A DNA stretch of 64,000 bases, from positions 136,793 to 200,792 of the forward strand of contig JAJVIQ010000019.1 in the NCBI GenBank assembly GCA_022071965.1. The letters are read 5' to 3'. Below, piece by piece: positions 7,758 through 47,222 of the stretch. Position 1 is the stretch's first letter; each line of letters begins with the position of its first letter. This DNA comes from Gammaproteobacteria bacterium. Lineage in GTDB: Bacteria; Pseudomonadota; Gammaproteobacteria; JAJPIJ01. The position numbers and the translations under genes are program-made. The notes below the pieces were generated by a model. The model ran no database searches and had not been told where the DNA came from. It worked only from the letters and a program-made list of their open reading frames with translations.

Positions 7758-7759
7758 GT

Positions 7760-12169: not shown

Positions 12170-12420
12170 TAAGTGTACTGGAGATGCCGTGGCCCGTCTG
12201 GCGGCAACTGCAGCGCGTGGTGAAGAAGTCGCGAGACGTCGACCATGTATGATGTGCGCCGAGGTTGCTGAGGCTGCACGTACTGGGCGGTAATGTGAGC
12301 GCGGCCGCGCAGGTGTGTGGCGCCTCACGCGGGGCACTGCGGCATTGCCCAACGCTCTACGAGAGCGGCGGTAAGCAGCCCTCGCACCGAAGTGGCGTGG
12401 GCTCAAAAATATTAGCTCAG
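12170..12420 (+). pseudogene. IS630/IS481-like transposase N-terminal HTH remnant
   Basis: Frame-broken peptide ELPWPVWRQLQRVVKKSRDV ... RLLRLHVLGGNVSAAAQVCGASRGALRHCPTLYESGG resembles the N-terminal HTH of IS630/IS481-family transposases. No DDE domain follows. Confidence 0.35.
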
Positions 12421-12425
12421 AGATC

Positions 12426-22686: not shown

Positions 22687-22725
22687 GCATCCACCTCCAT
22701 CATCGTTTCTCTCCCGCGCCACGGG

Positions 22726-23946
22726 CTATTCGTCCGCCGGCGGTTGCCAGGCGATGGCCCAGGCGTGGAGATCCGGCGCCGGCAGGGGGCGGCTGACGAG
22801 AAATCCCTGCGCCAGGTGACATCCGCGTGCCTTCAGCCATCGCCACTGCCCGGCAGTCTGCACACCCTCGGCGATCACCTTCATCCCGAGCTGTTTTGCG
22901 AGCTCGATGGAATTCTCGACGATGGCGCGCGCGACCCCGTCGGTCTCCGCCGCCTGCACGAACTGCATGTCGATCTTCAACTCCGTGAACGGCAGGCGGT
23001 GCAGCGACTCCAGCGACGAGTACCCGGTGCCGAAGTCGTCGATCGAGAGGTTGAATCCCTTGATGCGCAGCCGCGCGAGGATGTCGGCGGCCACGGTGGG
23101 CTGGTTGGCCAGCGAGGTCTCGGTGACCTCGAAGACGATGTGACGATGCGTCATCCCGCGCGAGCCGATGCGCGCCATGACGTGCTCGGGCAAGTGCACG
23201 TCGGAGAGTGCGCTGCCCGGTATGTTGACGGCGAGCACGCCGCTGTAGCCGGCGGTTTCGACCATCTCGGAATAACCGGCCAGCGCGAGCTCCAGCACGC
23301 GTTCGGTCACCGGAACGGCGAACTCCCCGGTCTGCGCGACGGGAATGAACTCCGCGGGGTGGATGAGGCCGTAATGCGGATGCTGCCATCGCACCAGCGC
23401 CTCCACGCCGCGCCAGCTTCCGTCCCCGAAATCGACCTGCGGCTGAAAATGCACCACCAGTTCGTCGGCGTCGAGCGCTCGCCGCAGTTCGCCGGCGGTG
23501 ATCTCCGGCCGGACAGTGCTGCGCCCCGGCGCCTGCTGTTCGGCCCGCAGCAGCGCCAGCAGGTCGGTAACGCTGAAGGGCTTCGGAAGCGCGCCCTTGA
23601 GGTTCAATCCCAGGCCGGTCGCGAGACGCGCGGCCGTGTCGAGCACGCGCCGGTCGAAGCCGCTGATGAGGATGAGTCTGGCCTTGCAGCCGGACTGCGC
23701 CAGCTCGCGTATCACCTCGATGCCGTCGACGTCCGGCATCGCAAGATCCAGCGCAATCACGTCCTGGGCCTGCTGCAGGCCGGCGCGCAGTTCCACCGCC
23801 GCACCGGCCTCCTGCACCTCGAAGCCCGCCTGCCGGCCGACGCGCCGCACCAGCGTCCGTATGCCGGCCTCGTCATCGATGACCAGCAGTCGCGGGCGCG
23901 CCGCCGGGGCTTCCTCCGGCATGTTCAATGCTGCGAGACCTGACAT
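22726..23946 (-). CDS. response regulator REC-EAL (c-di-GMP phosphodiesterase)
   Basis: 406 aa. REC is LLVIDDEAGIR...LDLAMPDVDG. EAL motifs are EALVRW, DDFGTGYSSL and EGVQT. Confidence 0.85.
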   Translation of the reverse strand: MSGLAALNMPEEAPAARPRLLVIDDEAGIRTLVRRVGRQAGFEVQEAGAAVELRAGLQQAQDVIALDLAMPDVDGIEVIRELAQSGCKARLILISGFDRRVLDTAARLATGLGLNLKGALPKPFSVTDLLALLRAEQQAPGRSTVRPEITAGELRRALDADELVVHFQPQVDFGDGSWRGVEALVRWQHPHYGLIHPAEFIPVAQTGEFAVPVTERVLELALAGYSEMVETAGYSGVLAVNIPGSALSDVHLPEHVMARIGSRGMTHRHIVFEVTETSLANQPTVAADILARLRIKGFNLSIDDFGTGYSSLESLHRLPFTELKIDMQFVQAAETDGVARAIVENSIELAKQLGMKVIAEGVQTAGQWRWLKARGCHLAQGFLVSRPLPAPDLHAWAIAWQPPADE

Positions 23947-24061
23947 TGCGAATACTCACCTCCCGCCGCCCGGCGCGGGGCGCGGCGGCAGATTTCTGCG
24001 CGCGGGCTCGCCGGGCGGGAGCCCGGTGCCCGCGACGCGCGTGTCGTGTTCATGACATTCC

Positions 24062-27000: not shown

Positions 27001-28918
27001 GGTCATCGGGATGCATGTCGCGCCGCCAGTCCTCGGCGACCTCCGCCTCCAGGGTGCGCCCGGAGAATTCCAGCCACGCGCGGTTGAAATACGTGCCGTG
27101 TCCGTCGGTGCCCGCCACCCAGATCATCACGGCGGTGGAGTCGGCCAGAGAGCGGAACCGCGCCTCGCTCTCGATCAGCGACAGCTCCGCGAGCCTGCGG
27201 ACCGTGACGTCGCGGGCGACGCCGAGCAGGCCGATCAGGCAGCCGTCCGGGCCACGCATGGGCAGCTTGATGGTCTCCGTGCACAGGCGGCTGCCGTCGG
27301 GGTTTACGAGGTCCTCCTCTCTTCGTGTCGCTTCGCTGCCAGCCATCGCGACCAGGTCATCGCGCCTGAAACCGGCCGCGGTCGCGGCGTCGACCAGCTC
27401 GAAGTCCGTGCGTCCGACTATCTCCTGCTCGGGCCTGCCGAAATAGCGCTCGACGGCCGAATTGCACAGGCGGTACACGCCCGCCTCGTCCTTCAGGAAC
27501 ACGTAATCGGGTATGGCGTTGAGAATCGTCCGCAGCAGATTGTGCTCGGCGGCGAGCGCCTCCTCGGCGATCTTCCTGGCGGAGGTGTCGAGCACGGTGC
27601 CGAAGGCCCGCACGGGCACGCCCCTGGCGTCCTTCACCGTGCGGGCGCGGGCGCGCACCCATCGGACCTGTCCGCCGACGACGATGCGATGCTCGATGTC
27701 GAAGCCTCCCCCCTGCCCCGCCTGCCGCCAGGCCGCGTGGACCCGGGCGCGGTCCGCCGAATGCACGATGCCGTCGAACGCCTCGCGCGAAGCGGGCGTG
27801 GACGGATCGATGCCGAGCAGGCGGTACATGTTCGGCGACCAGCGCACGCCGCCCGTGGCTGCCTCCGCCTCCCAGTGCGCGAGTCCGCTCACCGATTCGG
27901 CCTCCTGCAGCGCCTGCGTGCTGTCCCGCAGCAAGGCCTCGCTGCGCATGCGCCGGCGCAACATGCAGACGAGCGACACCAGCAACACGGCCGCGGCGGT
28001 CCCCGACAGCAGTGCGCGTTGCGCCCACGGCGCGAGATACTCGCGCGTGGCGAGACCGACGGCGATGTACAGCGGGTAGCCGCCGACGCGCCGGAATCCG
28101 TAGATCCTCTCCGCTCCGTCGACCGGCGAGACGTAGCGTTCCACGCCGGCGTACTCGCCCCGCGCGATGCGCCTGTATGACGGCGTCCCCGGCGCCGTCG
28201 CTCCGGGGTCCTGAAACGGCGGCCGCCGCAGCAGCAGGCCGTCGTCGTCCACGCGGCGCAGCACGATGGCGCCCTCCCCGCCCAGATCGACGTCCCGGAA
28301 CAGCCGTTCGAGTTGGCCGGTGTCGAGGATCAGGGCTACCGCACCGTTTACCGCGCCCGCCGTGTCCCTCGTGAGGCGGTAGAAAAGCAATGGCAGTCCG
28401 CCGCCCGCCGGCCCGCGCACCGGGCTGCCGACAATGAGGCCCCCGGCGCCCCCGAAATCGATCTGCTCGGTGATCGCGGGTCCGGCGGGCGTCGTCGCGC
28501 CGCTTGCCGGATCCACGAGGATCCAGCCGCTGCGGTCCGGCGCGACGACGGCAAGCCGCCCGAGATCGGTCTCCGTCAACGCACCCCGGCGAAGGTCCGC
28601 GCTCGCCAACAGGGAGTGCAAATCCGACGGGTCGCGAGACGCCTCGCCGGCCAACATGGCCGCCGCCGCGGCGAGATCGCGGTCGGCGCGTGCCACGGTG
28701 AAGCGCAGCTCGTGCTCGATGACGCGCGCAAGGTTTTCCACGGTGGTGCGGGCCACGCGATGCGCGTCGCGATAGCCTGACCAGATGAAATAGCCGAACA
28801 GCGCCAGCGTCGCCAGCAGGACGACGGCGAACGCCGCCCCCTCCCGGCGAATGTCCGCGGGGATCGCGGCTGTCCCGCCCGTGCAGATCGGATCTCTCGT
28901 TGGTTCGTGACGCATCAT
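24062..28918 (-). CDS. hybrid sensor histidine kinase: two TM helices flanking a periplasmic sensor domain, multiple PAS and GAF domains, HisKA, HATPase and a C-terminal REC
   Basis: About 1600 aa. The H-box is [19 protein letters not shown]. HATPase contains [18 protein letters not shown]. The C-terminal REC is [11 protein letters not shown]...TDVVMPG. The RBS GAGGGAGA sits before ATGATG at about 28918. The ORF is open to 28960. Confidence 0.85.
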
Positions 28919-29256
28919 TCTCCCTCGTCCCGACGCCGCGGTTGCAGCCCCGCTGGCCAATGACGACGGCCGGGCGCAACGTCATTTCGGCGCCCTGGGC
29001 GCCGATACGCTCCCTCTCCAGCCCATTTACAGTCTAAGCCCTGACCCGCAGCCGGCCATGTTGTCTAGCAAGATAGGGACCGTTGTAGCGCATCAGGAGC
29101 CACTGCGCCGGGTGCGGTCGGGATGCGGCCGTGGCGTCCCACGACGAGACCCCACCGCCGCCCGTCCGATCTGGCCCATCCGGCCCATAGAATTTCGGCG
29201 CCGGAATGTGGTCCAATCGCGCACCAACCAGGAGGCCGCCCGGGCGAGAAGGCGAC

Positions 29257-29877
29257 ATGGGAGAGCACTTCCTCTACACAGATCAGAGCAGCGACCGGCT
29301 GCTGTGGCGCCGCCGCCAGTTCCTGCTCTCGCTGCTGGCGGGCGCCGGGGCCGTGGCCACCGGGCGCGCGGTCGCCGACGTCCTGCCCATGGCGCCGGGC
29401 GGCGGCCTGCCCTCGCCGCTCGCCCACGTGCTCGAGGAGGCGCCCTGGCCGCTGCTGGAGGGGGTGCAATCGCACCTGCTGCCCACCGAGGCCGACAGTC
29501 CCGGCGCGGCGCAGGTGAACGCGCTCGCCTATCTGCAGGACGCGCTCGGCCGCGACGACGCCGATGCGATCGAGGATCGAAAATTCATCACGGCCGGCGC
29601 GGTCTTCCTGCGCAAGCGGATCGCGCTCGACTACGGCGGCCGCGTCTTCGAGGAGCTCGGTGAGGAGGAGCGCGAGGCGGCGCTGCGCAAGATGGCCGGG
29701 AGCGCCGACGGCGGCAACTGGATCTCGCTGGTGATGTACTACCTGCTCGAGGCCCTGCTGGCCGACCCGGTCTACGGCGGCAACACCGACGAGGTCGGCT
29801 GGAAGTGGCTGGGATACACGGCCGGATTCCCGCGGCCGCCGATCGGCAAGCGCTATTTCGAGATCAGGCCGGCATGA
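29257..29877 (+). CDS. gluconate 2-dehydrogenase subunit 3-like small subunit with Tat signal
   Basis: A twin-arginine motif WRRRQFLLSLLAGAGA is present, and GAGAAGG is a likely RBS. ATGA overlap with the downstream GMC oxidoreductase. Confidence 0.7.
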   Translation: MGEHFLYTDQSSDRLLWRRRQFLLSLLAGAGAVATGRAVADVLPMAPGGGLPSPLAHVLEEAPWPLLEGVQSHLLPTEADSPGAAQVNALAYLQDALGRDDADAIEDRKFITAGAVFLRKRIALDYGGRVFEELGEEEREAALRKMAGSADGGNWISLVMYYLLEALLADPVYGGNTDEVGWKWLGYTAGFPRPPIGKRYFEIRPA

Positions 29878-31556
29878 AAGACTTCGACGTGTGCGTCATC
29901 GGCAGCGGTGCCGGCGGCGGTCCCATCGCCTGGGAGGCCGCGCGCGCCGGCCGATCGGTCGTCGTCCTGGAGAAGGGGCCGTGGTTCGACGAGCGCGATT
30001 TCTACAAGGACGAGGTCACCTGCAATCATCGCCGCGTGTTCCGTTCCGACTACAAGACCGAGCCGCAGGTGATCGAGGAGCCGGGCGCGGACGGGCAGTG
30101 GTCGGCCCTGCCGACCTCGGATCCGAATTCCGGGCATGACTACTGGAACGGCAACTGCGTGGGCGGGTCGTCGAACTTCATGAGCGGGCACTTCTACCGC
30201 CTGAAACCCGATGACTTCCGGCTGTTGAGCACCTTCGGTCCCATCGCCGGCGCCAACATCGCCGACTGGCCGATCGCCTACGAGGATCTCGAGCCCTACT
30301 ACACCAGGGTGGAGACGGAGATCGGCATCTCCGGCCGCGTGGTGCCGCACAAGTTTCTCGAACCGCGATCCACGCCGGATTTTCCCTACACGCCGACCAC
30401 GGAGCACCTGTTCGCGCAGTGGGTGGACAAGGCGGCGGCGGAGATGGGCTACACGCCGCTGACCGTGGCGCGCGCCATCCTCACCCGGCCGAAGGACGAG
30501 CGGCGCCCCTGCGAATACTCCGGCTTCTGCGGCAGCTTCGGCTGCTCGAGCGGCGCCAAGGGCAGCTCGCGCGTGGCGCTGCTCAACCGCGCGGTGGCCA
30601 CCGGCCGCTGCGAGGTCCGCCCACAGGCGCACGTCTACAGGATCGAGTCCGGCGCCGACGGCCGCGCCACCGGTGCGCTGTACTACGACAAGGACGGGCA
30701 GGCGCAGCGCGTGGACGCCAGGGTGTTCGTGGTCGCCTGCCAGGCCATCGAGTCCTCCCGGCTGCTGCTGCTGTCGAGCGGCCCTAAGCACCCCAACGGC
30801 CTCGGCAACAATCGCGGGCAGGTCGGCCGCAACCTCATCTTCTCCGCCGGCGCCACCGGCGCCGGCCACGTGCTGCTGAAGGACTACGACGAGGCGACGG
30901 TGCGGCGGATTGAACTCCTCGGGCCGTTCGTCAATCGCGGTCTGCAGGATTTCTACCATGTCGATGATCCGGCGTTCGGCGGCCGCGCCAAGGGCGGCAC
31001 CATCGCCTTCGTCGGCAATTCGCCGAGCTTCATCCACCGGGCCATGCCCGAGCGGCGCGACGCGGACGGCGGGCTGGTCTGGGGCCGGGAGTTCAAGCGC
31101 CGCCTGGAATCCGTCTTCTGGAACAACCGGGTCCTGCGGTACGAGATCTTCTGCGACTGGCTGCCGAACGACGACTGCCACGTGGCACTCGACCCGGAGG
31201 TGAAGGACAAGTGGGGGCTGCCGGTCTCGCGCGTGCGCATCGGCCACCATCCGCATGACGACAAGGTGTCGCAGTATCTCGTCGACCGCGCCCGCCCGGT
31301 GATGGAGCGGATGGGGTTCCGCAACGTCATCGCCAATCTCAACGGCGCGCCGACGCCGAATCTGCAGGCAGGCGGCTGCCGCTTCGGTGCCGACCCGGCG
31401 ACCTCCGTGCTCGACGCGGACTGCCGCGTGCACGATTGCGAGAACGTCTACGTCAGCGACGGCAGCTTCATGCCCACCGGCGGCAGCGTGCCGTTCACCT
31501 GGACCATCTACGCCAACGCATATCGGGTGGCCGAGAGGCTGATCGCCAGTCTTTGA
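29874..31556 (+). CDS. GMC-family FAD-dependent oxidoreductase (large subunit)
   Basis: MKDFDVCVIGSGAGGGPIAWEAARAG is an FAD Rossmann motif. A C-terminal GMC signature is present. About 560 aa. Confidence 0.85.
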   Translation: MKDFDVCVIGSGAGGGPIAWEAARAGRSVVVLEKGPWFDERDFYKDEVTCNHRRVFRSDYKTEPQVIEEPGADGQWSALPTSDPNSGHDYWNGNCVGGSSNFMSGHFYRLKPDDFRLLSTFGPIAGANIADWPIAYEDLEPYYTRVETEIGISGRVVPHKFLEPRSTPDFPYTPTTEHLFAQWVDKAAAEMGYTPLTVARAILTRPKDERRPCEYSGFCGSFGCSSGAKGSSRVALLNRAVATGRCEVRPQAHVYRIESGADGRATGALYYDKDGQAQRVDARVFVVACQAIESSRLLLLSSGPKHPNGLGNNRGQVGRNLIFSAGATGAGHVLLKDYDEATVRRIELLGPFVNRGLQDFYHVDDPAFGGRAKGGTIAFVGNSPSFIHRAMPERRDADGGLVWGREFKRRLESVFWNNRVLRYEIFCDWLPNDDCHVALDPEVKDKWGLPVSRVRIGHHPHDDKVSQYLVDRARPVMERMGFRNVIANLNGAPTPNLQAGGCRFGADPATSVLDADCRVHDCENVYVSDGSFMPTGGSVPFTWTIYANAYRVAERLIASL

Positions 31557-34633: not shown

Positions 34634-36673
34634 CTACAGCAACGGAACGATCAGCAACGCAACGATGTTGATGATCTTGATGAGCGGGTTCACCGCCGGG
34701 CCTGCCGTATCCTTGTACGGATCGCCGACCGTGTCACCCGTCACCGCGGCCTTGTGGGCATCCGAACCCTTGCCGCCGTGGTTCCCCTCCTCGATGTATT
34801 TCTTGGCGTTGTCCCAGGCGCCGCCACCGGTGCACATGGAGATGGCGACGAAGATGCCGGTGACGATGGTCCCCATCAGCAGTCCGCCGACCGCCATGCG
34901 GGCGGCATGCTCGCCCATCGCGACGCGGATGATGAGCGCGAGCACGATGGGGGTCAATACCGGCAGCAGCGACGGGACGACCATCTCCTTGATCGCCGCC
35001 CGGGTGAGCAGGTCCACCGCCCGGCCGTACTCCGGCTTGGCCGTACCCTCCATGATGCCCTTGATCTCGCGGAACTGGCGGCGCACCTCGATCACCACCG
35101 ATCCCGCCGCGCGGCCCACCGCCTCCATCGCCATCGCCCCGAAGAGGTAGGGAATGAGGCCGCCGACGAACAGACCGATGATGACCGCCGGTGTGTCGAG
35201 ATTGAAGTCCACGAGCTTGCCCGCGGATTCCAGGCTGTGAGTGAAGTCCGCGAACAGCACCAGGGCCGCGAGGCCGGCGGACCCGATCGCGTAACCCTTG
35301 GTGACCGCCTTGGTGGTGTTGCCGACCGCGTCGAGCGGATCGGTGATGTTACGGATGTCCGGACCGAGCTCGGCCATCTCGGCGATGCCGCCGGCGTTGT
35401 CGGTGATGGGGCCGTAGGCGTCCAGCGCCACGATGATGCCGGCCATCGACAGCATGGAGGTCGCCGCAATCGCGATGCCGAAGAGACCGGCGAGCGTATA
35501 GGAGGCCCAGATCGCGATGCACACGAAGATGACCGGCCAGGCCGTGGACTTCATCGACACGGCGATGCCGGCGATGATGTTGGTCGCGTGCCCGGTGGTC
35601 GATGCCTGCGCGACGTAGCGCACCGGCTTGAAATCGGTGCCGGTGTAGTACTCGGTGATCCAGACCATCGCCGCGGTCAGCGCCAGGCCGATGAGCGCGC
35701 AGCCGTAGTAGGCGTTGACGCCGTGATCGCCGATGCCGGCCATGAACTTCTGCGTGACCGGGTAGAAGGCGATCGCCGCCAGCACGCCGGCGACGATGAG
35801 GCCGCGGTACAGGGCGTTCATGATCTTCCCGCCGTCGCGGGCCTTGACGAAGAAGGAACCGATCACCGAGGCGATGATGGAGACGCCGCCGATCACCAGC
35901 GGATAGAGCACCGCCCCGTCGGCCTTCAGCAGCAGGCCGCCGAGCAGCATGGTGGCGATCACGGTCACCGCGTAGGTCTCGAACAGGTCGGCGGCCATGC
36001 CGGCACAGTCGCCGACGTTGTCACCGACGTTGTCGGCAATCACCGCCGGGTTGCGCGGGTCGTCCTCCGGGATGCCGGCCTCGACTTTGCCGACGAGATC
36101 GGCGCCCACGTCCGCGCCCTTGGTGAAGATGCCGCCGCCCAGTCGCGCGAAGATGGAGATGAGCGAGGAGCCGAAGGCGAGGCCCACCAGCGGGTGCAGG
36201 TCGACCTCCTGCCCGGCCGGCGTCGCGCTCACCAGGTAGGCGTAGTAGCCGGCGACGCCGAGCAGTCCCAGGCCCACCACCAGCAGGCCGGTGATCGAGC
36301 CGCCGCGGAAGGCAACCTGCAGCGCGGCGTTCAGCCCCTGCCGGGCCGCCTCGGCGGTGCGCAGGTTCGACCGCACGGAGATGTTCATGCCGATGTAACC
36401 GGCCGCGCCCGAGAGCAGCGCGCCGATGAGGAAACCGATCGCCGTCGGCCAGTGCAGCACGAAACCGATGAGGAGGAACAGCACCACGCCGGCGATCGCG
36501 ATGGTGGTGTACTGGCGGTTCAGATAGGCCGAGGCGCCCTGCTGCACGGCCGCGGCGATCTCGCGCATGCGTTCGTTGCCCTGCGCCTGGGCGAGGATCC
36601 ACTTCACCGACCACGCCCCGTAAAGGATCGCCAGCACGCCGCAGGCCAGCGCAAACACGAGTGCTCCAGACAT
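34634..36673 (-). CDS. hppA: membrane-bound proton-translocating pyrophosphatase
   Basis: Signatures [12 protein letters not shown] and [12 protein letters not shown] are present, with many TM segments. AAGGGGGA is the RBS before ATG 36673. Confidence 0.9.
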
Positions 36674-36903
36674 TGAGAAAAATCCCCCTTGTAGTGAGTG
36701 TTGTTCGTAGCGATGCGATCGCGGGCCGCGAAGAGCGTGCACCGGCGCCGGGCCATGGCCGGCCCGGCCGCCAACGGCCAGGGCCGCTGCACGAGGACTG
36801 CTCTTGACCTACCGACGAGACGGTCCGACCACGGACCCGCCGGCACGGGGCCGCCGCAGCGACGGCCCCGGCCCGGCCGACAGCGGCGGGATTCTACCCT
36901 GCA

Positions 36904-38181
36904 TCACTTCAGAGCAAAACCGGTCCTGAGCCTTTTCTTCACAGGCGCGTTCTTCAGACGCACGTACAGCGGCAAGCCGTTCCGGTACGGCGGGTAGTCC
37001 TCGCCCTGGATGAGCGGCGCCAGGTAGCCGCGGCACTTCCGGGTGATGCCCAGGCCGTCCTCGGTGATGAAGTCCCGCGGCATCATCTTCTCCCTGTTGG
37101 CCACGTCCTCGAGCTCGGCCACGCCGACAGCCCACCTGTAGGGGCTGGAGGACTTGCGCACGATGGTCGGCATCACCGAGTTGCGGCCCTTCACGGCCAG
37201 CTCGACGGCGGCCTTGCCGACCGCATAGGCCTGGTTGACGTCGGTCTTCGAGGCGATGTGGCGGGCGGCGCGCTGCAGGTAATCGGCCACCGCCCAGTGG
37301 TATTTCACCTTGAGCTTCTCGCGCACCAGGCTGGCGATGACCGGCGCCACGCCGCCCAGCTGCGCGTGCCCGAAGGCATCGCGCAGGCCCTGATCGGAGA
37401 GGAACTTGCCATCCGGTCCGCGCACCCCCTCGGAGACGACCACCGAGCAGTAACCGTAGCGGGCGACGTTGGCCTCGACCCTGGCCAGGAAACGCTCCTG
37501 ATCGAAGGCGACCTCCGGGAAGAGGATGACGATCGGCAGCTCGAGATCCTTGTCGGAGGCGAGCCCCCCGGCCGCGGCAATCCATCCGGCATGGCGGCCC
37601 ATGACCTCCAGCACGAACACCTTGGTGGAGGTCCTGCACATGCTGGCCACGTCCAGGGAGGCCTCGCGCGTGGAGACGGCCACGTACTTGGCCACCGATC
37701 CGAAGCCCGGGCAGCAGTCGGTGATCGGCAGGTCATTGTCCACCGTCTTGGGCACGTGCACGCAGGTGATGGGGTAGCCCATGGTCTCGGAGAGCTGCGA
37801 GACCTTCAGGCAGGTGTCCGCCGAGTCCCCACCGCCGTTATAGAAGAAATAGCCGATGTCGTGGGCCCTGAAGACCTCGATCAGGCGCTCGTACTCGGCG
37901 CGATTCTGATCCAGCCCCTTGAGCTTGTAGCGGCAGGAGCCGAAGGCCCCGGAGGGCGTGTGGCGCAGTGCCTTCAGCGCCGCGCGGGACTCCTTGCCGG
38001 TGTCGATCAGATCCTCGGTGAGCGCGCCGATGATGCCGTCGCGTCCGGCATAGAGCTTGCCGATCCGGTTCCTGTGCCTGCGCGCAGTCTCGATGATGCC
38101 GGCGGCGCTGGCGTTGATGACGGCGGTGACGCCTCCGGACTGGGCGTAAAGGGCGTTTCGAATTCCGCTGAGCTTTGCCAT
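36904..38181 (-). CDS. pfp: pyrophosphate-dependent 6-phosphofructokinase
   Basis: MAKLSGIRNALYAQSGGVTAVINASAAGIIETARR...GGDGS-like PFK family motifs are present. It has the long PPi-PFK form of about 425 aa. AAGGAG is the RBS. Confidence 0.85.
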   Translation of the reverse strand: MAKLSGIRNALYAQSGGVTAVINASAAGIIETARRHRNRIGKLYAGRDGIIGALTEDLIDTGKESRAALKALRHTPSGAFGSCRYKLKGLDQNRAEYERLIEVFRAHDIGYFFYNGGGDSADTCLKVSQLSETMGYPITCVHVPKTVDNDLPITDCCPGFGSVAKYVAVSTREASLDVASMCRTSTKVFVLEVMGRHAGWIAAAGGLASDKDLELPIVILFPEVAFDQERFLARVEANVARYGYCSVVVSEGVRGPDGKFLSDQGLRDAFGHAQLGGVAPVIASLVREKLKVKYHWAVADYLQRAARHIASKTDVNQAYAVGKAAVELAVKGRNSVMPTIVRKSSSPYRWAVGVAELEDVANREKMMPRDFITEDGLGITRKCRGYLAPLIQGEDYPPYRNGLPLYVRLKNAPVKKRLRTGFALK

Positions 38182-38355
38182 GGTGATCTATAATGCTCCT
38201 TATTGGTGATGGTCGTCGTGAACGGCAACGGCCAGGGTGCGGGGATGTTAGCCCGGCGAGCCGGCCGGCGAGAAGCGAGCAGGCACCATCGGCACGACCC
38301 CATCACGCCCGATTGGAACTCCCCCGTCCCCGGCCGGTCCACCCACATACGTTCC

Positions 38356-39825
38356 ATGTCCCGTAGATCCCCCGTGCGTCGCCTGTTCAGCATCCTGCCG
38401 ATCTGTCTGGCGTCGATCGCCGGGGCCGCCCATTGCGCGGACGACCTTCCGGATTTCGGGGACTCCGCGGGCGCATTCATCTCGCCGGACCAGGAGTACA
38501 GGATCGGACGCGCCTTCGTGCGCGACCTGCGCAGCAAGGGCGTGATCCTCGAGGACCCGGAGTTGGAGGTCTACCTGCAGGGGCTGGGCTCGCGGCTGGC
38601 GAGCCATGCCGACACGCAGGGGAATCCGTTCGATTTTTTCATCGTGCAAAGCCCGGTGCTCAACGCCTTCGCGGTGCCGGGCGGCTTCATCGGCGTGCAC
38701 ACCGGCCTCATCCGCGAGACACAATCCGAGAGTGAGCTGGCCGGCGTCCTGGCGCACGAAATCTCGCACGTCACCCAGCGCCACGCCGCACGCATGTTCG
38801 AGGCCGCGAGCCGGCTCAGCATCCCCTCGGCCGTCGGCATGCTCGGCGCCATACTCCTCGGTGTCGTCTCGCCGCAGGCCGGCCAGGCCGCCATGGCCGC
38901 CGTGGCCGCGGGCCAGCAGCAATACGCGTTGAACTTCACGCGCGCCAACGAGCAGGAGGCCGACCGTATCGGCATCCAGGTCATGGCGCGCTCCGGCTTC
39001 AACCCCCAGGGCATGCCGGACTTCTTCGAGCGCATGCAGACGGCGAACCGCTACAACGACCCGGCGAGCGTACCGGAGTTCCTGCGCACGCACCCGGTGA
39101 CCACCAACCGTATCGCCGAATCGCGTGAGCGCGCCGACGCGATGAAACCGAGCCGCTACGAGGAGAACCCCGATTTCCGCCTCATGCGCGCCAAGGTGAT
39201 CGTGGCCGACACCAGGGAGCCGCGTGACGCGGTCAATTACTACGCCGAATCGTTGCGGGCGGGTCAGTTCAAGGACGAACTGGTCGCCCGTTACGGTTAC
39301 GCGCTGGCGCTGACGGCCGCGGGCGACTACGGCAAGGCCCGCCTGCAGATCGACCGGCTGCTCGAAGCCGAGCCCGAGAACGTGCACTTCCGGCTGGCCT
39401 CGGCGCGGCTGCAGGTCGCACAGCGCGCCTACGAGCCCGCGCTCGCCGTCTATGACGGGATACTGCACGACTACCCGGACTACCGGCCGGCCGTGCTGGG
39501 CAAGGTGGAGACGTTGCTCGCCGCGCGTGAGGGCAGGACCGCGCGCACCGTCCTGCGCGACTACATGACGTTGTACGGTTCCGAGCCGCGCACCTACCGG
39601 CTGCTGGCGGAGGCCGAGGGCATGACGGGATCGAAGATCGAATCGCATATCGCCCAGGCCGAGTATTACTACGGCAGCGGCGAGCTCGGGCTGGCCATCG
39701 AGCAGTTGAAGGTCGCCAAGGACGCCCCCGGCATCACCTATTATCAGAGCGAGCGGGTGCAGGCTCGGCTGGATCAGTTGCAGAAGGAATTCGACGCGGA
39801 GAAAAAGGACAAGGACAAGTTCTGA
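38356..39825 (+). CDS. bepA: M48-family zinc metalloprotease with TPR repeats (BepA/YfgC-like)
   Basis: A signal peptide is present. HEISH is the zinc motif, with NEQEADRIG downstream. The C-terminal half contains TPR repeats. Confidence 0.8.
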   Translation: MSRRSPVRRLFSILPICLASIAGAAHCADDLPDFGDSAGAFISPDQEYRIGRAFVRDLRSKGVILEDPELEVYLQGLGSRLASHADTQGNPFDFFIVQSPVLNAFAVPGGFIGVHTGLIRETQSESELAGVLAHEISHVTQRHAARMFEAASRLSIPSAVGMLGAILLGVVSPQAGQAAMAAVAAGQQQYALNFTRANEQEADRIGIQVMARSGFNPQGMPDFFERMQTANRYNDPASVPEFLRTHPVTTNRIAESRERADAMKPSRYEENPDFRLMRAKVIVADTREPRDAVNYYAESLRAGQFKDELVARYGYALALTAAGDYGKARLQIDRLLEAEPENVHFRLASARLQVAQRAYEPALAVYDGILHDYPDYRPAVLGKVETLLAAREGRTARTVLRDYMTLYGSEPRTYRLLAEAEGMTGSKIESHIAQAEYYYGSGELGLAIEQLKVAKDAPGITYYQSERVQARLDQLQKEFDAEKKDKDKF

Positions 39826-39844: not shown

Positions 39845-40327
39845 ATGACCATGCGCCCTCCCGTCAATCGTTCGCGGCGCCGCCTGCTCGCCGCATGGGC
39901 GAGCGGCATGGCCGCGCTGCCCGTCGCGGGCTGGCTGTTCCCGCGGGCGGCGCGCGCGGCGTGGCCGAAGGCCGCGTTCGCGGCCACGACGGCCGAGGGC
40001 GCGCTGAGGGAGCTCTTCGGCGGAGCCGCGATCGAGCCGAGCGACCGCGTCCGCATCACCCTGCCCGACGTCGCCGAGGACGGTGCCGTGGTCCCGCTCA
40101 CCATCGAGACCGATCTCGAGCCGGTGCGGTCGATCGTCGTGGTCTCGGAGAAGAACCCGGTGCCGCTCATCGCGCGCTTCGATTTCGGCGAGGACGCGCT
40201 CGCCGACACGCTGGCCACGCGCATCAAGCTCGCGGAGTCCGAGAACATCATCGTCGTCGTGCAGACCCCCGAACGCCTCTGCACCGCGCGGCGCTACGTG
40301 GAAGTGCTGATCGGCGGCTGCAGCTGA
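39845..40327 (+). CDS. soxY: thiosulfate-oxidation carrier protein SoxY-like (Tat signal), atypical C-terminus
   Basis: A Tat motif SRRRLLAAWASG is present. The SoxY-like beta-sandwich region includes ITLPDVAEDGAVVPL. The protein ends ...VEVLIGGCS rather than the canonical GGCGG. Confidence 0.7.
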   Translation: MTMRPPVNRSRRRLLAAWASGMAALPVAGWLFPRAARAAWPKAAFAATTAEGALRELFGGAAIEPSDRVRITLPDVAEDGAVVPLTIETDLEPVRSIVVVSEKNPVPLIARFDFGEDALADTLATRIKLAESENIIVVVQTPERLCTARRYVEVLIGGCS

Positions 40328-40333
40328 GAGCTC

Positions 40334-40657
40334 ATGACCGACACGCCCTCCACCACCAGGGTGCGCACGAGCATCGCCGATGGGATCTGCACCGTGCGCG
40401 CGATGATGCGGCACGTCATGGAGACCGGCAACCGCAGGGACAAGCTGACCGGAGCCCTCATCCCCGCGCACCACATCACCGAGGTGGCCTGCGAGCACAA
40501 CGGCCGCGTGGTGATGTCCTGCGCGTGGGGCACCGGCATCGCGCGCAATCCGCTGCTGTCGTTCCGATTCCGGGGTGCACGCCCGGGCGATGTCCTGACG
40601 CTGCGCTGGGTCGACAACCGCGGCGCCACCGACGTCACGCACGTCACCATCGAATGA
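40334..40657 (+). CDS. soxZ: SoxZ sulfur-carrier partner
   Basis: 107 aa. MRHVMETGNRRDKLTGALIPAHHITEVACEHNGRVVMSCAWGTGIARNPLLSFRF matches SoxZ. It lies 6 bp after soxY. Confidence 0.7.
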   Translation: MTDTPSTTRVRTSIADGICTVRAMMRHVMETGNRRDKLTGALIPAHHITEVACEHNGRVVMSCAWGTGIARNPLLSFRFRGARPGDVLTLRWVDNRGATDVTHVTIE

Positions 40658-40900
40658 CCGGGGCCGGGCAGGCCGACGCATCCGGCCGGAGGCCCGACCG
40701 TGGTGCCCATCATGGCGGCGGTTCGGGCCGGGGGCCGCTGGTCGGTCTGCCACAGGTTTGGCCGCGACGCGCCGCCGGCCACCGGGGAGCGGCGCGCGCC
40801 GCGCGGCAGGCGTCTTCTTGCTCGGGATCATCCGGCCGCAACCGTCGCGGGGGTACGCTGCCCCTGTCGCTGCCGGCCCCCGGGACGCCAACGATCCGCC

Positions 40901-42091
40901 ATGTTCGAGAGCATCGTCCGCATCTTCGGCAGCGACCTGCCCAGCCTGCCGCGGGCCAGCCTCACACGACGCGAGCAGCTCTGGCTCCTCGACGCCCGCG
41001 ACCACGATCCCCTGCTGCGCACCCGGCGTGCAGGGATGGTGGCGGCCCGCGCACGGCTGCTGGCCGGGCTGTTCCTCGCGCTGACGCCGGTGTGGATGCT
41101 CGTGGAATACCTCACCCTGCCGCGCAGTCTGTGGCTGGCCGTGGGCATCGCGCGCCTGGGGATCATCGTGCCCTTCCTGGCGATGCTCTGGGCGCTGCGC
41201 GCCCGCGCCCGCCACCGCCGCGTCGTGATCATCGCGCTCTTCGCGCTGTTCGCCGTGCCCGCCGTCTTCTATGTCTGGACCATGAAGATCCTGGGCGCCG
41301 GCAGCGGGACCGGGGTGGCACAGGCCGTGGTGGCCACGCACACATTCTTCCCCCTGCTGCTGGTGGCGGGCCTGGGCCTGTTTCCGCTGACGGTGACGGA
41401 ATCGCTGGCCCTGTCGCTGCCCATTTTTCTCGCGCGCGGCTGGGTCCTCTGGCAGGTGCTCGCACCCGGCAACGTCTACGCCCTGCTGGGCGCCCTCTGG
41501 TTCCTGCTGCTCGTGGCGGCCGCGGGCGCGCTCGCGGCAGGCAGCCAGCTCGCCCTGCTCATCGCGCTGCTGCGCCAGTCGATCCGCGATCCGCTGACCG
41601 GCGCCTTCTCGCGCGCCAGCGGCGAGGAGCTGCTCGCGCTGGAGACGACGATCGCGCAGCGCGGCGACAAGCCCTTCGCCCTCGCCTTCATCGACCTGGA
41701 TCGGTTCAAAGACGTGAACGATCGCCACGGGCACGATGCCGGCGATCGCGTGCTCGCGGCCGCCGCGGCCAGCATCGCCGGCAGCCTGCGCACCACCGAC
41801 GCGCTGCTGCGCTGGGGGGGCGAGGAATTCGTCGTGCTCATGCCGAACACCGACTGCGTGCAGGCCATGATCGGCCTGGAGCGGTTGCGTGTGCGAGGTT
41901 TCGGCCTGCGCCCGGACGGGCAGCGGCAGACGGCCAGCATCGGCGTGGCGGAACGCCTCGCCGACGGGCGGGTGGACGCCGCGAAGCTCGTCGAGCTCGC
42001 CGACCGGCGCATGTACGAGGCCAAACGCGCCGGCCGCGACCGGCTGATCGGCTGCCGGCCCCCTGCGGGCGACAGGCAGCCGCGTTCTTGA
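40901..42091 (+). CDS. membrane-anchored diguanylate cyclase (GGDEF)
   Basis: Multiple N-terminal TM helices are present. The active-site motif RWGGEEFVVLMP is intact, and DRFKDVNDRHGHDAGD is also present. Confidence 0.8.
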   Translation: MFESIVRIFGSDLPSLPRASLTRREQLWLLDARDHDPLLRTRRAGMVAARARLLAGLFLALTPVWMLVEYLTLPRSLWLAVGIARLGIIVPFLAMLWALRARARHRRVVIIALFALFAVPAVFYVWTMKILGAGSGTGVAQAVVATHTFFPLLLVAGLGLFPLTVTESLALSLPIFLARGWVLWQVLAPGNVYALLGALWFLLLVAAAGALAAGSQLALLIALLRQSIRDPLTGAFSRASGEELLALETTIAQRGDKPFALAFIDLDRFKDVNDRHGHDAGDRVLAAAAASIAGSLRTTDALLRWGGEEFVVLMPNTDCVQAMIGLERLRVRGFGLRPDGQRQTASIGVAERLADGRVDAAKLVELADRRMYEAKRAGRDRLIGCRPPAGDRQPRS

Positions 42092-42152
42092 TGCGTGAGG
42101 TCATGAGCTCCACCGTGGTGCCCGACCGCAGTCGTTCGATTATTCTGTCTCC

Positions 42153-45100
42153 ATGACCGGGCAACGCGAGTATCCGGCCGGGGCTGCGGCCAGCGGGCGG
42201 CATGAGGCGATGACGAATCACACCGGGGGCGTCCTCCGCGTCGTCCTCTACTACGCCGCGTTCGCCAGCCTGTGGATCCTGGTTTCCGACAAGGTGCTGG
42301 AGACGCTTGTCCGGGACGGTGCGGCCTATGCGCAGTGGTCGATATACAAGGGCTGGGCCTTCGTCGTCATCACCAGCGCGCTGCTGGCGGTCGTTCTGCG
42401 CGGCGAGTTGCGGCAGCGGGAGCGCGCCGGGGCGGCACTGCGGGACAGCCGCGAGGAGACACGGCGTTACGAGACGCTGCTCGAGCACGTCAGCGAGGGT
42501 ACACCCGATGCCGTCTACGTGAAGGACACCGACGGCCGCTACCTGCTGTTCAACACCGGGGCCTGCCACATCGTCGGTCGCCCGCGCGCGGAGGTGCTCG
42601 GCCGGGATGACACCGCCCTCCTGCAGCCGGAGGAGGCCCGGGCGGTCATGGCGAAGGATGGTCATATCATGGCCACGGGAACCACGGACACCTTCGAAGA
42701 GACCGTCACGCTCGGCGGCAAGGCGCGCACGTTCCTGACCACGAAAGGCCCGGTGCGCGACGCGCACGGCGGCATCGTCGGCCTGTTCGGCATCGCCCGG
42801 GACATCACCGAGCGCCGACGGGCCCAGGTGGCCCTCGCCGAGGCCAACCGGCTGCGGGAGCTCATCCTCGAGTCGGTCGGCGACGGCATACACGGCATCG
42901 ACCTCGCCGGAAGGATCGCCTTCGAAAATGCTACGGCACTGACGATGTTCGGCCGGGAGGCGCAGGAGATGATCGGCCAGGAGGCCCACGCGCTCACCCA
43001 CCATCATCACCCCGACGGCAGCGTCTATCCGGCCGAGGACTGTCCCATTAACCGAACCCTGCGCGACGGGAAGACGCGCCATGTCGAGAACGAGGTGTAC
43101 TTCCGCCGGGACGGCACGAGCTTTCCCGTCGAGTACACCTGCTGCGCGATGAGGAACGAGGCCGGTGTCATATCCGGCGCAGTGATCGTCTTCCGTGACG
43201 CGACCGAGCGGCGGCGCGCCGAGGCGGAGATCCAGAAGGAGCGGCTGCTGTCCGACTCGATACTGAGGAGCCTGCCCGGCATCTTCTACCTGTTCGACGA
43301 GCAGGGACGCTACCTGCGCTGGAATCAGAATCTCGTGCGCCTGAGCGGCTACTCGGAGGAGGAGTTCCGGCAGCGTCATCCCCTGGAATTCTTCACCGGC
43401 GAGGAGAAGACGTTGATCCGTGAACGCATCGGGCGTGTCTTCACCGAAGGCATGGCGGACGCCGAGGCGCACTTCACGGCCCGCGACGGGACACTCACGC
43501 CGTTTTATTTCACCGGCGTGCGGCTCGAACTGGACGGACGGCCGCACCTGGCGGGCGTGGGCATCGAGCTCACCGAGCGCAACCGTGCCGAGGCCGAGTC
43601 GCGCCTGCTGCAGGCCATCGCATCCGGCATCGCCGAGGCGGCCGACCTCAACGACGCGCTGGCGTTCGTGCTGAGGAAGGTCTGCGACGAGACCGGATGG
43701 GCCATGGGCGAGGTGTGGCTGCCAACCCGCGACCGGGCGCGGCTGGAGTGCCACCCGGTGTGGCACAGCCGGGCCCCGGGGCTGGAGCCGTTCCGGCAGG
43801 TGAGCCGCAGCAGCACCTTCGCACCCGGCGAGGGCCTGCCGGGGCTCGTATGGAGCACCGGGCGGACGGCATGGATCGAGGATGTGCGGAGATGGTCCCC
43901 CTTCAGGCGCATGCAGGCAGCGGAGGCGGCAGGGCTCAAGGCAGCGGTCGGCCTGCCGGTGCTCGCGCGCGAACAGGTCGTGCTCGTGATGGACTTCTTC
44001 CTGTTGGAGAAGGGTGCGCAGGATCGGCGGATGACGGGCCTGGTCGCGGCCGTCGCGGCGCAGATCGGGCTGCTCATCGAGCGCAGGCTGGCCGAGTCGC
44101 GCGTGCAGCACCTCGCCCGCCTGTACGCCGCACTGACCGACGTGAACCAGATCATCGTGCGTGTGAAGAGTCGCGACGAGCTGTTCGCGGGCATCTGCCG
44201 CGTGGCGGTGGAGCGCGGCGGCATGGCGCTGGCATGGATAGGCCTGCTCGATCACGACGCCGGCGTGCTGACGCCCGTCTGCGCCCACGGCGCCGATCGC
44301 GATCGTCTGCCGCGCCGGGGGATCGACGTCACGGGGCCGGCTTTCGGCGCAAGCTCCATGGCCGTGGCCATCGCCTCGGGGCGCGTGACCTACAACCGTG
44401 ACATGCGGTCGGACCCGGCCATGCAGCACTGGGAGGGGCCGGAGGTCCCCCCGGACTTCCTGGCGACCGCCTCCGTGCCCATACGCCTGAGCCGCCAGGT
44501 CGTCGGCCTTCTGAACCTGTACACGAAGGACCCGGACCTCGTCGCCGACCCCGACCAGCAGCGACTGCTGGAGGAGATGGCGGAGGACGTGTCCTTCGCG
44601 CTCGACGCGCTGCATCGCGAGGCCAGGCGCCGGCTGGCGGAAGACGGGCTGCGCGAGAGCGAGACGCGGCTGCGACTGGCGTTGGACGCCGCGCGCATGG
44701 GTACCTTCGAGTGGGACATGCCGGGGAAGCGGATGACCTGGTCAGGCAGGCACGAGGAGCTCTGGGGCTACGCGCCGGGGGAGTTCGACGGAACCTATGA
44801 CGCCTTCGCGCAGCGTGTACATCCGGAGGACCTGGCAGGCCTCGAGGCGGAGATCGACCGCTGCACGGCCACGAAGGTGCCCTTCAGGCGTGAGTACCGC
44901 GTCGTGTGGCCGGACGGCAGCGTGCACTGGGTACTGGGACAGGGAGAGGCCGCTTTTGACGATCCGGACCGGCCCGGGCTGCTGCGCGGCACGGTGATGG
45001 AGATCACCCCTCGCAAGCAGGCGGAGCAGCAGCTGCACCTGCAGAGCACCGCGCTGGCCTCATCGGCCAACGCCATCATGATCACGGACACCGGCGGCAC

Positions 45101-47222
45101 GATCCTGTGGGTGAACGACGCGTACTGCGCCCTCACCGGATACGGCATGGGCGAGGTCGTGGGCCGCAACCCCCGCGAGCTGGTCAAGTCCGGGCGGCAG
45201 GACGAGGCCTATTACCGTAGGCTGTGGGACACCATCCTCGCCGGCGACGTCTGGCACGACGAGATTGTCAATCGCCGCAAGGACGGCAGCCTCTACACCG
45301 AGGACCAGACCATCACCCCGGTGCGTAACGAGCAGGGCGAGATCACGCATTTCGTCGCCGTCAAGGTCGACGTCACCGAACGGAAGGAGGCGCAGGACAG
45401 GATCCTCAGGCTGAATCGCGTCTACAAGATGCTGAGCGCGATCAACGCCCTGATCGTGCATATCCGCGACCGCGAGGAGCTGCTGCGGGAGGCCTGCCGC
45501 ATCGCGGTGGAGGACGGCGGCTTCCGCATGGCCTGGATCGGCACCGTGCCGGAGGGCGGGAAGACCATCACTCCCCGCTCCTGGGCGGGGCCGGTGGAGG
45601 GATACCTGGAGCACGTCCACCTCTCCCTGGACGGCGGGATGCCGGAGAAGGACTGCGTGTGCAGCCGGGCGGCGCGAACCGGGCAGCCGGCGGTCCTCAA
45701 CAACCTCGCGACGGCCGGCAGCGCCGACGCTGCCTGGCTCGAGGCGGCGCGGTCACGGGGCTTCCGCGCCGCCGCCGCCCTGCCGCTCAATGTCGGGCGC
45801 GCGCTCGAGGGCGTGCTCGCCCTCTATGCCTCCGAGACGGACCTCTTCGATGCCGAGGAGATGAGGCTGCTCGTCGAGCTGGCCGAGGACATTTCCTACG
45901 CGCTGGAGAACATCGCCAGATCCGAGCAGCTCGAATACCTGTCGTCCTACGACGCGCTCACGGGGCTCGCAAACCGCACACTCTTCAATGCCCACCTGAA
46001 TGCCGTGCTGGACAGGGCCCGCCAGTCCCGCAAGCAGGTCGCGCTGCTGGTCTGCGATCCGAAGAACTTCCGCCATGTCAACAACGTCTACGGTGAGAAG
46101 TCCGGTGACCTGATCCTCAGGACGACGGCCGAGAGGCTGCGCCATCTGGCGGGCGATCCGGTGAACCTCGGACGCATCACCGGGGATTACTTCGCGATGA
46201 TCCTGCATGACGTCCGTGATGCGACCGGCATCGGCTACATGTTCGCGAACTCGCTGTTCCCCGCGCTGTGCGAACCGGTCTCGCTGGGCGAGGAGGAGGT
46301 GCAGGTCGGCTTCCACGGCGGTATCGCCGTGTACCCCACGGACGGCGAGGATGCGGATGCCCTGTACCGCAACGCGGAGGCGGCGCTCAAGAAGGCCAAG
46401 GCCGGCGGCGAGCGGTACCTGTTCTATCGGCCCGAGATGACCGCGAGGATCGCCGAGAATCTGCAGCTCGAACGCCGCTTGCGGGTGGCGCTGGCCAACG
46501 GGCAGTTCGTCCTCCATTACCAGCCCAAGGTCGACGCCGTCACGCAACGCGTCACGGGCGTGGAGGCGCTGATACGATGGCAGGATCCCGACACGGGGCT
46601 CGTGCCGCCGGGAAAGTTCATCCCCATCCTCGAGGAAACCGGTCTCATCCTGGAGGTGGGCCTGTGGGCCCTGGACCGCGCCGCCCGCGACTACCGGGTC
46701 TGGCGCAGGGAACTCGGCGAGGCGCCGCGGATCGCGGTGAACGTCTCCGCAATACAGCTGCAGCGGCACGATTTCGCGGAGAGCGTGATGGAGGCGATAC
46801 AGCGCAGCGGCGATCCGGTGCCTCTCGATCTGGAGATCACCGAGTCGATGATCATGGTGGACATCGAGCAGAACATCGCCAAGCTCGGCAGCCTGCGCGC
46901 GGCCGGCATGGGCGTGGCGATCGATGACTTCGGCACGGGCTACTCGTCCCTGAGCTACATTTCGAGGCTGCCGGTCGATGCGCTGAAGATCGATCGTTCC
47001 TTCGTGATGAACATGACGGGCCACCGGGAGAGCATGACGATCGTCTCCTCGGTGATCACCCTGGCGCATTCCCTGAATCTCAAGGTGATCGCCGAGGGGG
47101 TCGAGACGGAGGAACAGGCGAAATTCCTCGCGCTGCTGAAGTGTGACCAGATGCAGGGATATCTCTTCGGCAGGCCCGTGCCGCCGGAGACGATACTCGA
47201 GCGTCTGCGCGCCCATCCATGA
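42153..47222 (+). CDS. giant membrane-anchored multi-PAS/GAF signalling protein with degenerate GGDEF and an EAL domain
   Basis: 1689 aa. The N-terminal TM region is followed by at least six PAS and about three GAF segments. The GGDEF position reads RITGDYFAMIL, which is degenerate. EAL motifs EALIRW, DDFGTGYSS and EGVETE are present. Confidence 0.85.
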   Translation: MTGQREYPAGAAASGRHEAMTNHTGGVLRVVLYYAAFASLWILVSDKVLETLVRDGAAYAQWSIYKGWAFVVITSALLAVVLRGELRQRERAGAALRDSREETRRYETLLEHVSEGTPDAVYVKDTDGRYLLFNTGACHIVGRPRAEVLGRDDTALLQPEEARAVMAKDGHIMATGTTDTFEETVTLGGKARTFLTTKGPVRDAHGGIVGLFGIARDITERRRAQVALAEANRLRELILESVGDGIHGIDLAGRIAFENATALTMFGREAQEMIGQEAHALTHHHHPDGSVYPAEDCPINRTLRDGKTRHVENEVYFRRDGTSFPVEYTCCAMRNEAGVISGAVIVFRDATERRRAEAEIQKERLLSDSILRSLPGIFYLFDEQGRYLRWNQNLVRLSGYSEEEFRQRHPLEFFTGEEKTLIRERIGRVFTEGMADAEAHFTARDGTLTPFYFTGVRLELDGRPHLAGVGIELTERNRAEAESRLLQAIASGIAEAADLNDALAFVLRKVCDETGWAMGEVWLPTRDRARLECHPVWHSRAPGLEPFRQVSRSSTFAPGEGLPGLVWSTGRTAWIEDVRRWSPFRRMQAAEAAGLKAAVGLPVLAREQVVLVMDFFLLEKGAQDRRMTGLVAAVAAQIGLLIERRLAESRVQHLARLYAALTDVNQIIVRVKSRDELFAGICRVAVERGGMALAWIGLLDHDAGVLTPVCAHGADRDRLPRRGIDVTGPAFGASSMAVAIASGRVTYNRDMRSDPAMQHWEGPEVPPDFLATASVPIRLSRQVVGLLNLYTKDPDLVADPDQQRLLEEMAEDVSFALDALHREARRRLAEDGLRESETRLRLALDAARMGTFEWDMPGKRMTWSGRHEELWGYAPGEFDGTYDAFAQRVHPEDLAGLEAEIDRCTATKVPFRREYRVVWPDGSVHWVLGQGEAAFDDPDRPGLLRGTVMEITPRKQAEQQLHLQSTALASSANAIMITDTGGTILWVNDAYCALTGYGMGEVVGRNPRELVKSGRQDEAYYRRLWDTILAGDVWHDEIVNRRKDGSLYTEDQTITPVRNEQGEITHFVAVKVDVTERKEAQDRILRLNRVYKMLSAINALIVHIRDREELLREACRIAVEDGGFRMAWIGTVPEGGKTITPRSWAGPVEGYLEHVHLSLDGGMPEKDCVCSRAARTGQPAVLNNLATAGSADAAWLEAARSRGFRAAAALPLNVGRALEGVLALYASETDLFDAEEMRLLVELAEDISYALENIARSEQLEYLSSYDALTGLANRTLFNAHLNAVLDRARQSRKQVALLVCDPKNFRHVNNVYGEKSGDLILRTTAERLRHLAGDPVNLGRITGDYFAMILHDVRDATGIGYMFANSLFPALCEPVSLGEEEVQVGFHGGIAVYPTDGEDADALYRNAEAALKKAKAGGERYLFYRPEMTARIAENLQLERRLRVALANGQFVLHYQPKVDAVTQRVTGVEALIRWQDPDTGLVPPGKFIPILEETGLILEVGLWALDRAARDYRVWRRELGEAPRIAVNVSAIQLQRHDFAESVMEAIQRSGDPVPLDLEITESMIMVDIEQNIAKLGSLRAAGMGVAIDDFGTGYSSLSYISRLPVDALKIDRSFVMNMTGHRESMTIVSSVITLAHSLNLKVIAEGVETEEQAKFLALLKCDQMQGYLFGRPVPPETILERLRAHP

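Follow-up and report, generated by a model that had tools for sequence, protein, structure and literature searches.

A SoxY sulfur carrier whose GGCS ending is typical of one lineage of uncultivated high-GC Gammaproteobacteria

The soxYZ pair at 39845-40657 encodes a SoxY whose carrier arm ends in GGCS, and this ending is a natural, lineage-wide variant, the normal form of the protein in one lineage of uncultivated high-GC Gammaproteobacteria. The pair was analysed within the window, the whole stretch of 64,000 nucleotides under study. The identity of the genes, the conservation of the ending, purifying selection on both genes, the synteny of the locus and the presence of a GGCS SoxY beside SoxX and SoxA in a relative are direct observations. 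The window SoxY is very probably a genuine, selected carrier with a lineage-typical ending, and the pair probably operates as a functional SoxYZ carrier with partner enzymes encoded at other genomic sites. As a sequence variant the feature is modest: the carrier is well known and stands where such carriers are usually found, and the current understanding of the Sox pathway is not overturned. The features of the locus are as follows.

34634-36742, minus strand: H+-pyrophosphatase (H+-PPase; Pfam H_PPase, 1.8e-270)
36904-38181, minus strand: PPi-type phosphofructokinase (PFK), divergent from the protease gene
38203-39825, plus strand: BepA-like M48 metalloprotease with TPR repeats (Pfam Peptidase_M48, 1.8e-38, plus TPR)
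39845-40327, plus strand: soxY, periplasmic sulfur-carrier subunit, 160 aa, C-terminus VLIGGCS-stop
39863-39958, plus strand: Tat signal peptide of SoxY, VNRSRRRLLAA ... PRAARA / AWPK, read from the translation
40313-40327, plus strand: end of the SoxY carrier arm, G157 G158 C159 S160 stop, read from the codons
40334-40657, plus strand: soxZ, carrier partner subunit, 107 aa (Pfam SoxZ, 8.4e-32)
40901, most likely start: membrane GGDEF gene, downstream, 244 nt after soxZ
42153-47222: PAS/GAF-GGDEF-EAL gene, 1,689 aa, downstream

The preliminary description of this DNA had placed the two reading frames here with SoxY ending in GGCS, and the coordinates, the codons and the Pfam and NCBIfam matches agree with it. 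The C-terminal stretch of the 160-aa product is ...RRYVEVLIGGCS-stop, and the last codons of soxY read GGC GGC TGC AGC TGA, in which 40319-40321 encodes C159, 40322-40324 encodes S160 and 40325-40327 is the stop. The match to the Pfam SoxY profile (PF13501) spans profile positions 2-112 of 112, with an E-value of 1.1e-29 and 103.3 bits against a gathering score of 28.4. The protein also matches four solved SoxY chains, 2NNC (2.7e-19), 4UWQ (1.6e-13), 2OXG and 2OX5, and these matches settle the fold. C159 aligns with the carrier cysteine of the solved chains and is the predicted sulfur-binding cysteine of the window SoxY. Both SoxY paralogue models score below their cut-offs, TIGR04487 (AACIE-arm) with 55.8 bits against 172 and TIGR04557 (fused SoxYZ-like) with 73.3 bits against 140. 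On the NCBIfam model TIGR04488 (SoxY_true_GGCGG), the window SoxY reaches 125.1 bits at a curated cut-off of 125, compared with 178.6 bits for a canonical Thiohalomonas SoxY and 123.8 bits for the GGCS SoxY of locus L099. The protein does not carry the C-terminal GGCGG of the canonical SoxY; its GGC motif lies at the extreme C-terminus, with the cysteine one residue from the end. The arm reads VLIGGC and differs from the VTIGGC of signature S1a as defined in PMC11237559. The cluster look-up for the window SoxY leads to MCG3202388.1 (locus tag NFCOHLIN_02270), and its deposited annotation is hypothetical protein.

The twin arginine of the SoxY signal peptide (R11 and R12) is invariant in an alignment of 23 sequences (alignment A1). 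The soxZ gene starts 6 nt past the soxY stop, and its product scores 113.8 bits on TIGR04490 (SoxZ_true), above the cut-off of 76. SoxZ reads as free of a signal peptide, and a SoxY with a predicted Tat signal adjoined by an apparently signal-less SoxZ is the arrangement expected of the family. A second cysteine, Cys147 (40283-40285, RLCTARR), lies 12 residues ahead of the carrier cysteine in the window SoxY. It is shared only with the closest homologue, P0002, and is replaced by Tyr in all other homologues aligned; it could form a disulfide bond with the arm cysteine, or be neutral.

A departure from the textbook motif in a single gene, together with a borderline TIGR04488 score, could be read as a sequencing error that hides a true GGCGG ending, or as the mark of a gene pair that is an unselected relic. 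These two features are all that points in this direction, and the reading has a negligible probability. The identical SoxY is encoded on contigs of six independent sequencing runs, and the identical SoxZ was found in three further runs. Eleven homologues (P0001-P0011), ranging from 100% down to 59% identity to the window SoxY, retain the GGCS ending. A single substitution at the end of soxY gives GGCG at best, and GGCGG needs an inserted codon. All seven syntenic relatives carry exactly one codon between the cysteine and the stop, and this codon differs between them (AGC, AGT, GCC, GAT, GGC and AAT, encoding S, S, A, D, G and N). The sequencing error suggested in the preliminary description is therefore dismissed by the six runs, the 11 GGCS homologues and the differing codons of the one-codon tails. 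Pairwise dN/dS values are 0.25-0.43 for soxY and 0.18-0.48 for soxZ, well under 1; with GC3 at ~0.9 and constraint on synonymous sites, they probably overstate the true ratios. The residues A77, E78, G80, V83, P84, K103, N104, P105 and the GGC are invariant in alignment A1, and the core motifs AE(D/N)G..VP and KNP.PL.A are intact in the window SoxY, as is the Tat signal. Thus, the dN/dS values and the invariant core motifs and GGC indicate that both genes are under selection.

The block H+-PPase, PPi-PFK, BepA-like M48 protease, soxY and soxZ recurs in relatives of the window. Five of the relatives carry both PFK and PPase, and their SoxY ends in GGCS (L001, 83% identical to the window SoxY), GGCA (L005), GGCD (L007), GGCG (L009) or GGCN (L098). 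Two others, L097 and L099, end in GGCS and carry the PFK, with the PPase not found in the flank. In the lineage of the window, the SoxY cysteine is in every case followed by a single small residue (S, A, D, G or N). Among the loci listed, the upstream PFK and H+-PPase occur only in this lineage; A. vinosum lies outside those loci. The two genes mark the organismal lineage and are not a functional part of the carrier. The MoCF/PPase/PFK block has upstream of it genes for a gluconate 2-dehydrogenase subunit-3-like protein and a GMC oxidoreductase (29206-31556). L001 and L007 carry a GMC oxidoreductase in the corresponding place, so the conserved synteny reaches beyond the sox locus.

The GGCGG ending had been described as invariant in SoxY. 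A full HMMER scan of 1.84 billion 50%-identity cluster representatives showed otherwise when the C-termini of the best 150 matches were tabulated. The cysteine is followed by GG in only 49 of these representatives, by G in 23, by A in 8, by D in 7 and by S in 4; six end at the cysteine without a tail, and the remaining 53 have a longer or mixed tail or no terminal GC motif. As the ranking of the best 150 reflects similarity to the query, these counts over-sample the part of the SoxY family to which the query belongs. The Thermus chain in 4UWQ likewise ends in GGCG. In a rough neighbour-joining tree of 122 residues, the non-GG sequences nearest the window form their own clade, apart from a large clade that is almost uniformly KVTIGGCGG. 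Thus, the invariance of GGCGG holds only within the canonical SoxY clade. According to PMC11237559, a survey of 1,631 SoxY sequences treated GGC as the functional motif and described several natural variants of the swinging arm. The literature found holds no experiment on a non-glycine SoxY tail. Further departures were seen at single loci whose SoxY genes are otherwise canonical and come from species-representative genomes: L031 ends at the cysteine (GGC-stop), L056 ends in NGCGN, L090 ends in GGCGV, and the SoxY of L061 has no arm at all, possibly owing to a frameshift or an assembly error.

The small one-residue tails (G, S, A, D and N) amount to a natural mutagenesis set, and such a series could reveal what SoxAX and SoxB demand of the carrier arm. 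They also bear on annotation. The GGCGG hallmark, written even into the name of the NCBIfam model, is too strict, as a different ending is found in two thirds of the 50%-identity SoxY clusters nearest to the window protein. The lineage with one-residue tails sits exactly on the TIGR04488 cut-off, and the choice between calling a member SoxY or "hypothetical" is consequently almost random.

The most informative relative is locus L099, from the genome of an uncultured gammaproteobacterium (MAG GCA_050740855.1), which by its sequence likeness belongs to the broad lineage of the window. Its gene order is protease-soxX-soxY-soxZ-soxA, and stop and start codons overlap within it. On the NCBIfam models, SoxX reaches 90.6 bits (cut-off 61) and SoxA 191.8 bits (cut-off 110). 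L099 resembles the window in the GGCS ending, the one-codon tail and the protease-PFK context, with 76% identity between the PFKs and 49% between the proteases. It differs in that soxX and soxA are kept at the locus. Its SoxY (P0036) is ~43-47% identical to the window SoxY, and its arm reads VTIGGCS. The same ending therefore occurs inside a Sox gene cluster, which is the observation that the preliminary description had called for; the evidence is genomic rather than biochemical. The possibility of a functional variant of the swinging arm, raised in the preliminary description, gains support from this soxXYZA cluster, from purifying selection and from the lineage-wide conservation of the ending.

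A scan with one genome per species gave at least 80 loci, which together with other loci make up a sample of 86 non-redundant loci listed. Among the 75 listed loci with a GG tail, the protease lies upstream of soxY in 41 and soxX or soxA is present at the locus in 51; for the 11 with a non-GG tail, the corresponding numbers are 8 and 1. The 41 canonical protease-linked loci listed have soxX or soxA in cis in 24 cases and soxYZ alone in 17. Complete protease-soxX-soxY-soxZ-soxA-soxB clusters are found in seven loci (L021, L034, L037, L048, L064, L071 and L093), and the arrangement of protease and soxYZ alone includes Thiocapsa, Rhabdochromatium, Imhoffiella, Lamprocystis and Thiodiazotropha. 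In Thiohalomonas, the order protease-soxXYZA was confirmed with NCBIfam models. L009, L024 and L097-L099 are also among the listed loci in which the protease is the immediate upstream neighbour of soxYZ, soxXYZA or soxXYZAB and is read in the same direction. The window pair thus shares its chromosomal position with ordinary Sox operons and is the positional orthologue of soxYZ, soxXYZA and soxXYZAB loci, and the stand-alone soxYZ position is the usual one in this bacterial group. The pair had been called an orphan. The term is overstated, since a soxYZ pair apart from soxAXB is the arrangement studied experimentally in A. vinosum (PMC8232776) and the site next to the protease holds soxYZ, soxXYZA or soxXYZAB in many gammaproteobacterial sulfur oxidisers.

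The gap between the protease gene and soxY is only 19 nt in the window, and the two genes are probably in one transcription unit. The protease start may lie further in, as 38209 is the start chosen by gene callers and a signal-peptide-like stretch follows Met52 (38356). The best NCBIfam model for the protein is M48_BAM_BepA (NF052400), with 423 bits against an equivalog cut-off of 570; the proteases beside canonical sox loci reach 364-389 bits on this model. "BepA-like" is accordingly the safe name, because BepA is the best model and the M48/TPR architecture is present while the score lies under the cut-off. The linkage to soxY is recurrent. In 49 of the 86 loci listed, an M48 protease gene of the same orientation lies upstream of soxY, and the linkage spans Chromatiaceae, Thiohalomonadaceae, Sedimenticolaceae, symbionts and the lineage of the window. 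In L009 and L099, the protease stop overlaps the start of the next sox gene. In the literature found, this linkage appears only as a passing mention, the adjacency to soxY-S1b in Sedimenticola noted in PMC11237559.

With such close spacing, the protease might be a functional partner that trims or quality-controls the C-terminal arm of SoxY or acts on the Sox complex, so that the gene order would reflect a functional module and not inherited synteny. This is very improbable. The protein resembles an ordinary housekeeping BepA in its domains and in its best NCBIfam model, 37 of the 86 loci listed have no M48 gene within the flank examined, and the literature found contains no biochemical link between BepA and Sox. 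Moreover, the pattern is accounted for just as well by an old insertion site that has been passed down vertically.

The preliminary description had also placed c-di-GMP signalling genes next to the pair. This holds for the downstream side; the upstream side is occupied by the BepA-like M48 protease, the PPi-PFK and the H+-PPase. A scan for terminators 3' of soxZ gave one weak site only (40796-40813), and shuffled sequence folds just as well as the GC-rich hairpin at 40657-40705 (z = 0.28). Downstream of soxZ, each syntenic locus has different genes, among them an opposite-strand HDOD-RR-GGDEF gene, acs, glcDEF, a YkuD-domain gene and an MFS transporter. The c-di-GMP neighbours are therefore incidental, and these genes were rejected as candidate partners of SoxYZ.

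The window encodes at least four GGDEF/EAL proteins, and signalling genes are unusually dense at 16312-28960 and 40901-47222. The set comprises an RR-PAS-GGDEF-EAL protein, a PAS histidine kinase, an RR-EAL protein and a 1,632-aa multi-PAS/GAF hybrid kinase, in addition to the membrane GGDEF protein and the 1,689-aa PAS/GAF-GGDEF-EAL protein. An island lies elsewhere in the window (2878-13112). Behind a tRNA gene (2878-2962) comes the N-terminal half of a tyrosine integrase with the arm-binding and central domains (3089-3739), and the catalytic half is found 8.7 kb away at 12426-13112. Between the halves is a minus-strand block of low GC (0.56-0.60) that encodes a ResIII helicase-like protein, a DNA methylase and an Mrr-type endonuclease; the integrase looks like it was split by an inserted restriction-modification cassette. 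An Rfam match to the alphaproteobacterial SAM riboswitch (10796-10875, plus strand, 36.4 bits against a gathering score of 36) lies in this island, with the methylase gene on one side and the Mrr gene on the other, and is probably a chance match in a gammaproteobacterium.

Partner enzymes were sought across the 64-kb window. Pfam scans of ~40 ORFs found none of soxX, soxA, soxB, dsr, hdr, sqr or fcc there, and tblastn of the window with SoxX, SoxA and SoxB from related loci, the SoxB query being the NCBIfam-confirmed SoxB of L073, gave a best E-value of 0.2. Both approaches bear out the earlier remark that the window has no soxAXB. A protein search with the Sedimenticola SoxB listed only relatives of the query, with at least 78% identity.

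The arrangement is most readily explained by partners encoded elsewhere in the genome, a reading we hold to be probable. SoxY would be exported through the Tat pathway by its RRRLL signal, with the signal-less SoxZ bound to it and carried along. Sulfur compounds would be held covalently on Cys159 at the tip of the arm as thiosulfonate or sulfane adducts, and SoxAX-type and SoxB-type enzymes encoded elsewhere would load and process these adducts, by analogy with Allochromatium vinosum. In the lineage, the arm would have been shortened to one small residue past the cysteine (S, A, D, G or N); in the branch of the window, soxX and soxA would no longer stand at this site, and soxYZ would be co-transcribed with the protease gene. 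The tail of SoxY would need only be short and small.

A different role of the pair also has to be considered. The carrier may have been re-purposed, so that SoxYZ would no longer serve the thiosulfate pathway of SoxAX and SoxB in this lineage and would act as a periplasmic carrier or buffer of sulfane or sulfite, for example by feeding rDsr or sHdr or by aiding sulfite oxidation. The loss of the GG tail would then be a release from the constraints set by SoxAX and SoxB. We regard this as possible but rather unlikely. No sox partner was found in the window or within 10 kb in L001, L005, L007, L009, L097 and L098, and the tail varies between S, A, D, G and N in the lineage, in contrast to the nearly uniform GG of the canonical clade. 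Among the loci listed, soxX and soxA are absent nearby in 7 of the 8 protease-linked non-GG loci, and non-GG tails occur in 10 of the 34 loci without soxX or soxA versus 1 of the 52 with them (Fisher p = 0.0003), a p value that overstates the case because the loci come mostly from one lineage and are not phylogenetically independent. This enrichment fits a relaxed or altered use of partners. Work on how SoxYZ bears on sulfite oxidation in A. vinosum is listed among the references of the review PMC8232776 (ref. 85). However, the GGCS SoxY of L099 is co-encoded and translationally coupled with SoxX and SoxA, canonical purple sulfur bacteria with a stand-alone soxYZ still use SoxAX and SoxB (PMC8232776), and SoxB was crystallised in complex with a Thermus SoxY whose tail is a single residue.

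A broader combination of these ideas, in which a distinct lineage-wide SoxY subtype that is mostly detached from soxX, soxA and soxB and co-transcribed with the protease gene works in a different, undescribed sulfur pathway, is improbable. Should the genomes prove to be without SoxAX and SoxB, SoxYZ would belong to an undescribed periplasmic sulfur pathway, with the protease possibly as a functional partner.

Among the systems compared, the SoxY signature variants described in PMC11237559 are natural changes of the swinging arm, and a BepA-type protease stands beside soxY-S1b as it does beside the window soxY. These signatures concern residues before the cysteine (VTIGGC), unlike the change in the tail of the window SoxY, and neither a one-residue non-glycine tail nor the lineage of the window is mentioned in the accessible part of that source. 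As in the window, soxY and soxZ of Allochromatium vinosum form a unit of two genes apart from the remaining sox genes; soxBXA and soxYZ lie in two DNA regions of this species, and thiosulfate oxidation requires both (PMC8232776, citing Hensen et al. 2006). In Thiocapsa, Rhabdochromatium, Imhoffiella and Lamprocystis, soxYZ likewise follows a BepA-like protease, with soxX and soxA not nearby. The canonical arm reads VKVTIGGCGG, compared with VEVLIGGCS in the window SoxY, and the identity to the canonical clade is 35-49%. The SoxY proteins of Paracoccus pantotrophus (SoxYZ, 2OXG and 2OX5) and Chlorobium (2NNC) are of the same family, with the cysteine ending a C-terminal arm, and belong to complete sox clusters; unlike the window SoxY, they end in GGCGG. 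The SoxY of Thermus thermophilus (4UWQ chain B, 136 aa as deposited) ends in ...VTVGGCG, one residue past the cysteine as in the window. It is a distant homologue, and its tail is a Gly where the window has a Ser. Since this Thermus SoxY ends in GGCG as deposited in the SoxB-SoxYZ complex, a one-residue tail is compatible with SoxB binding.
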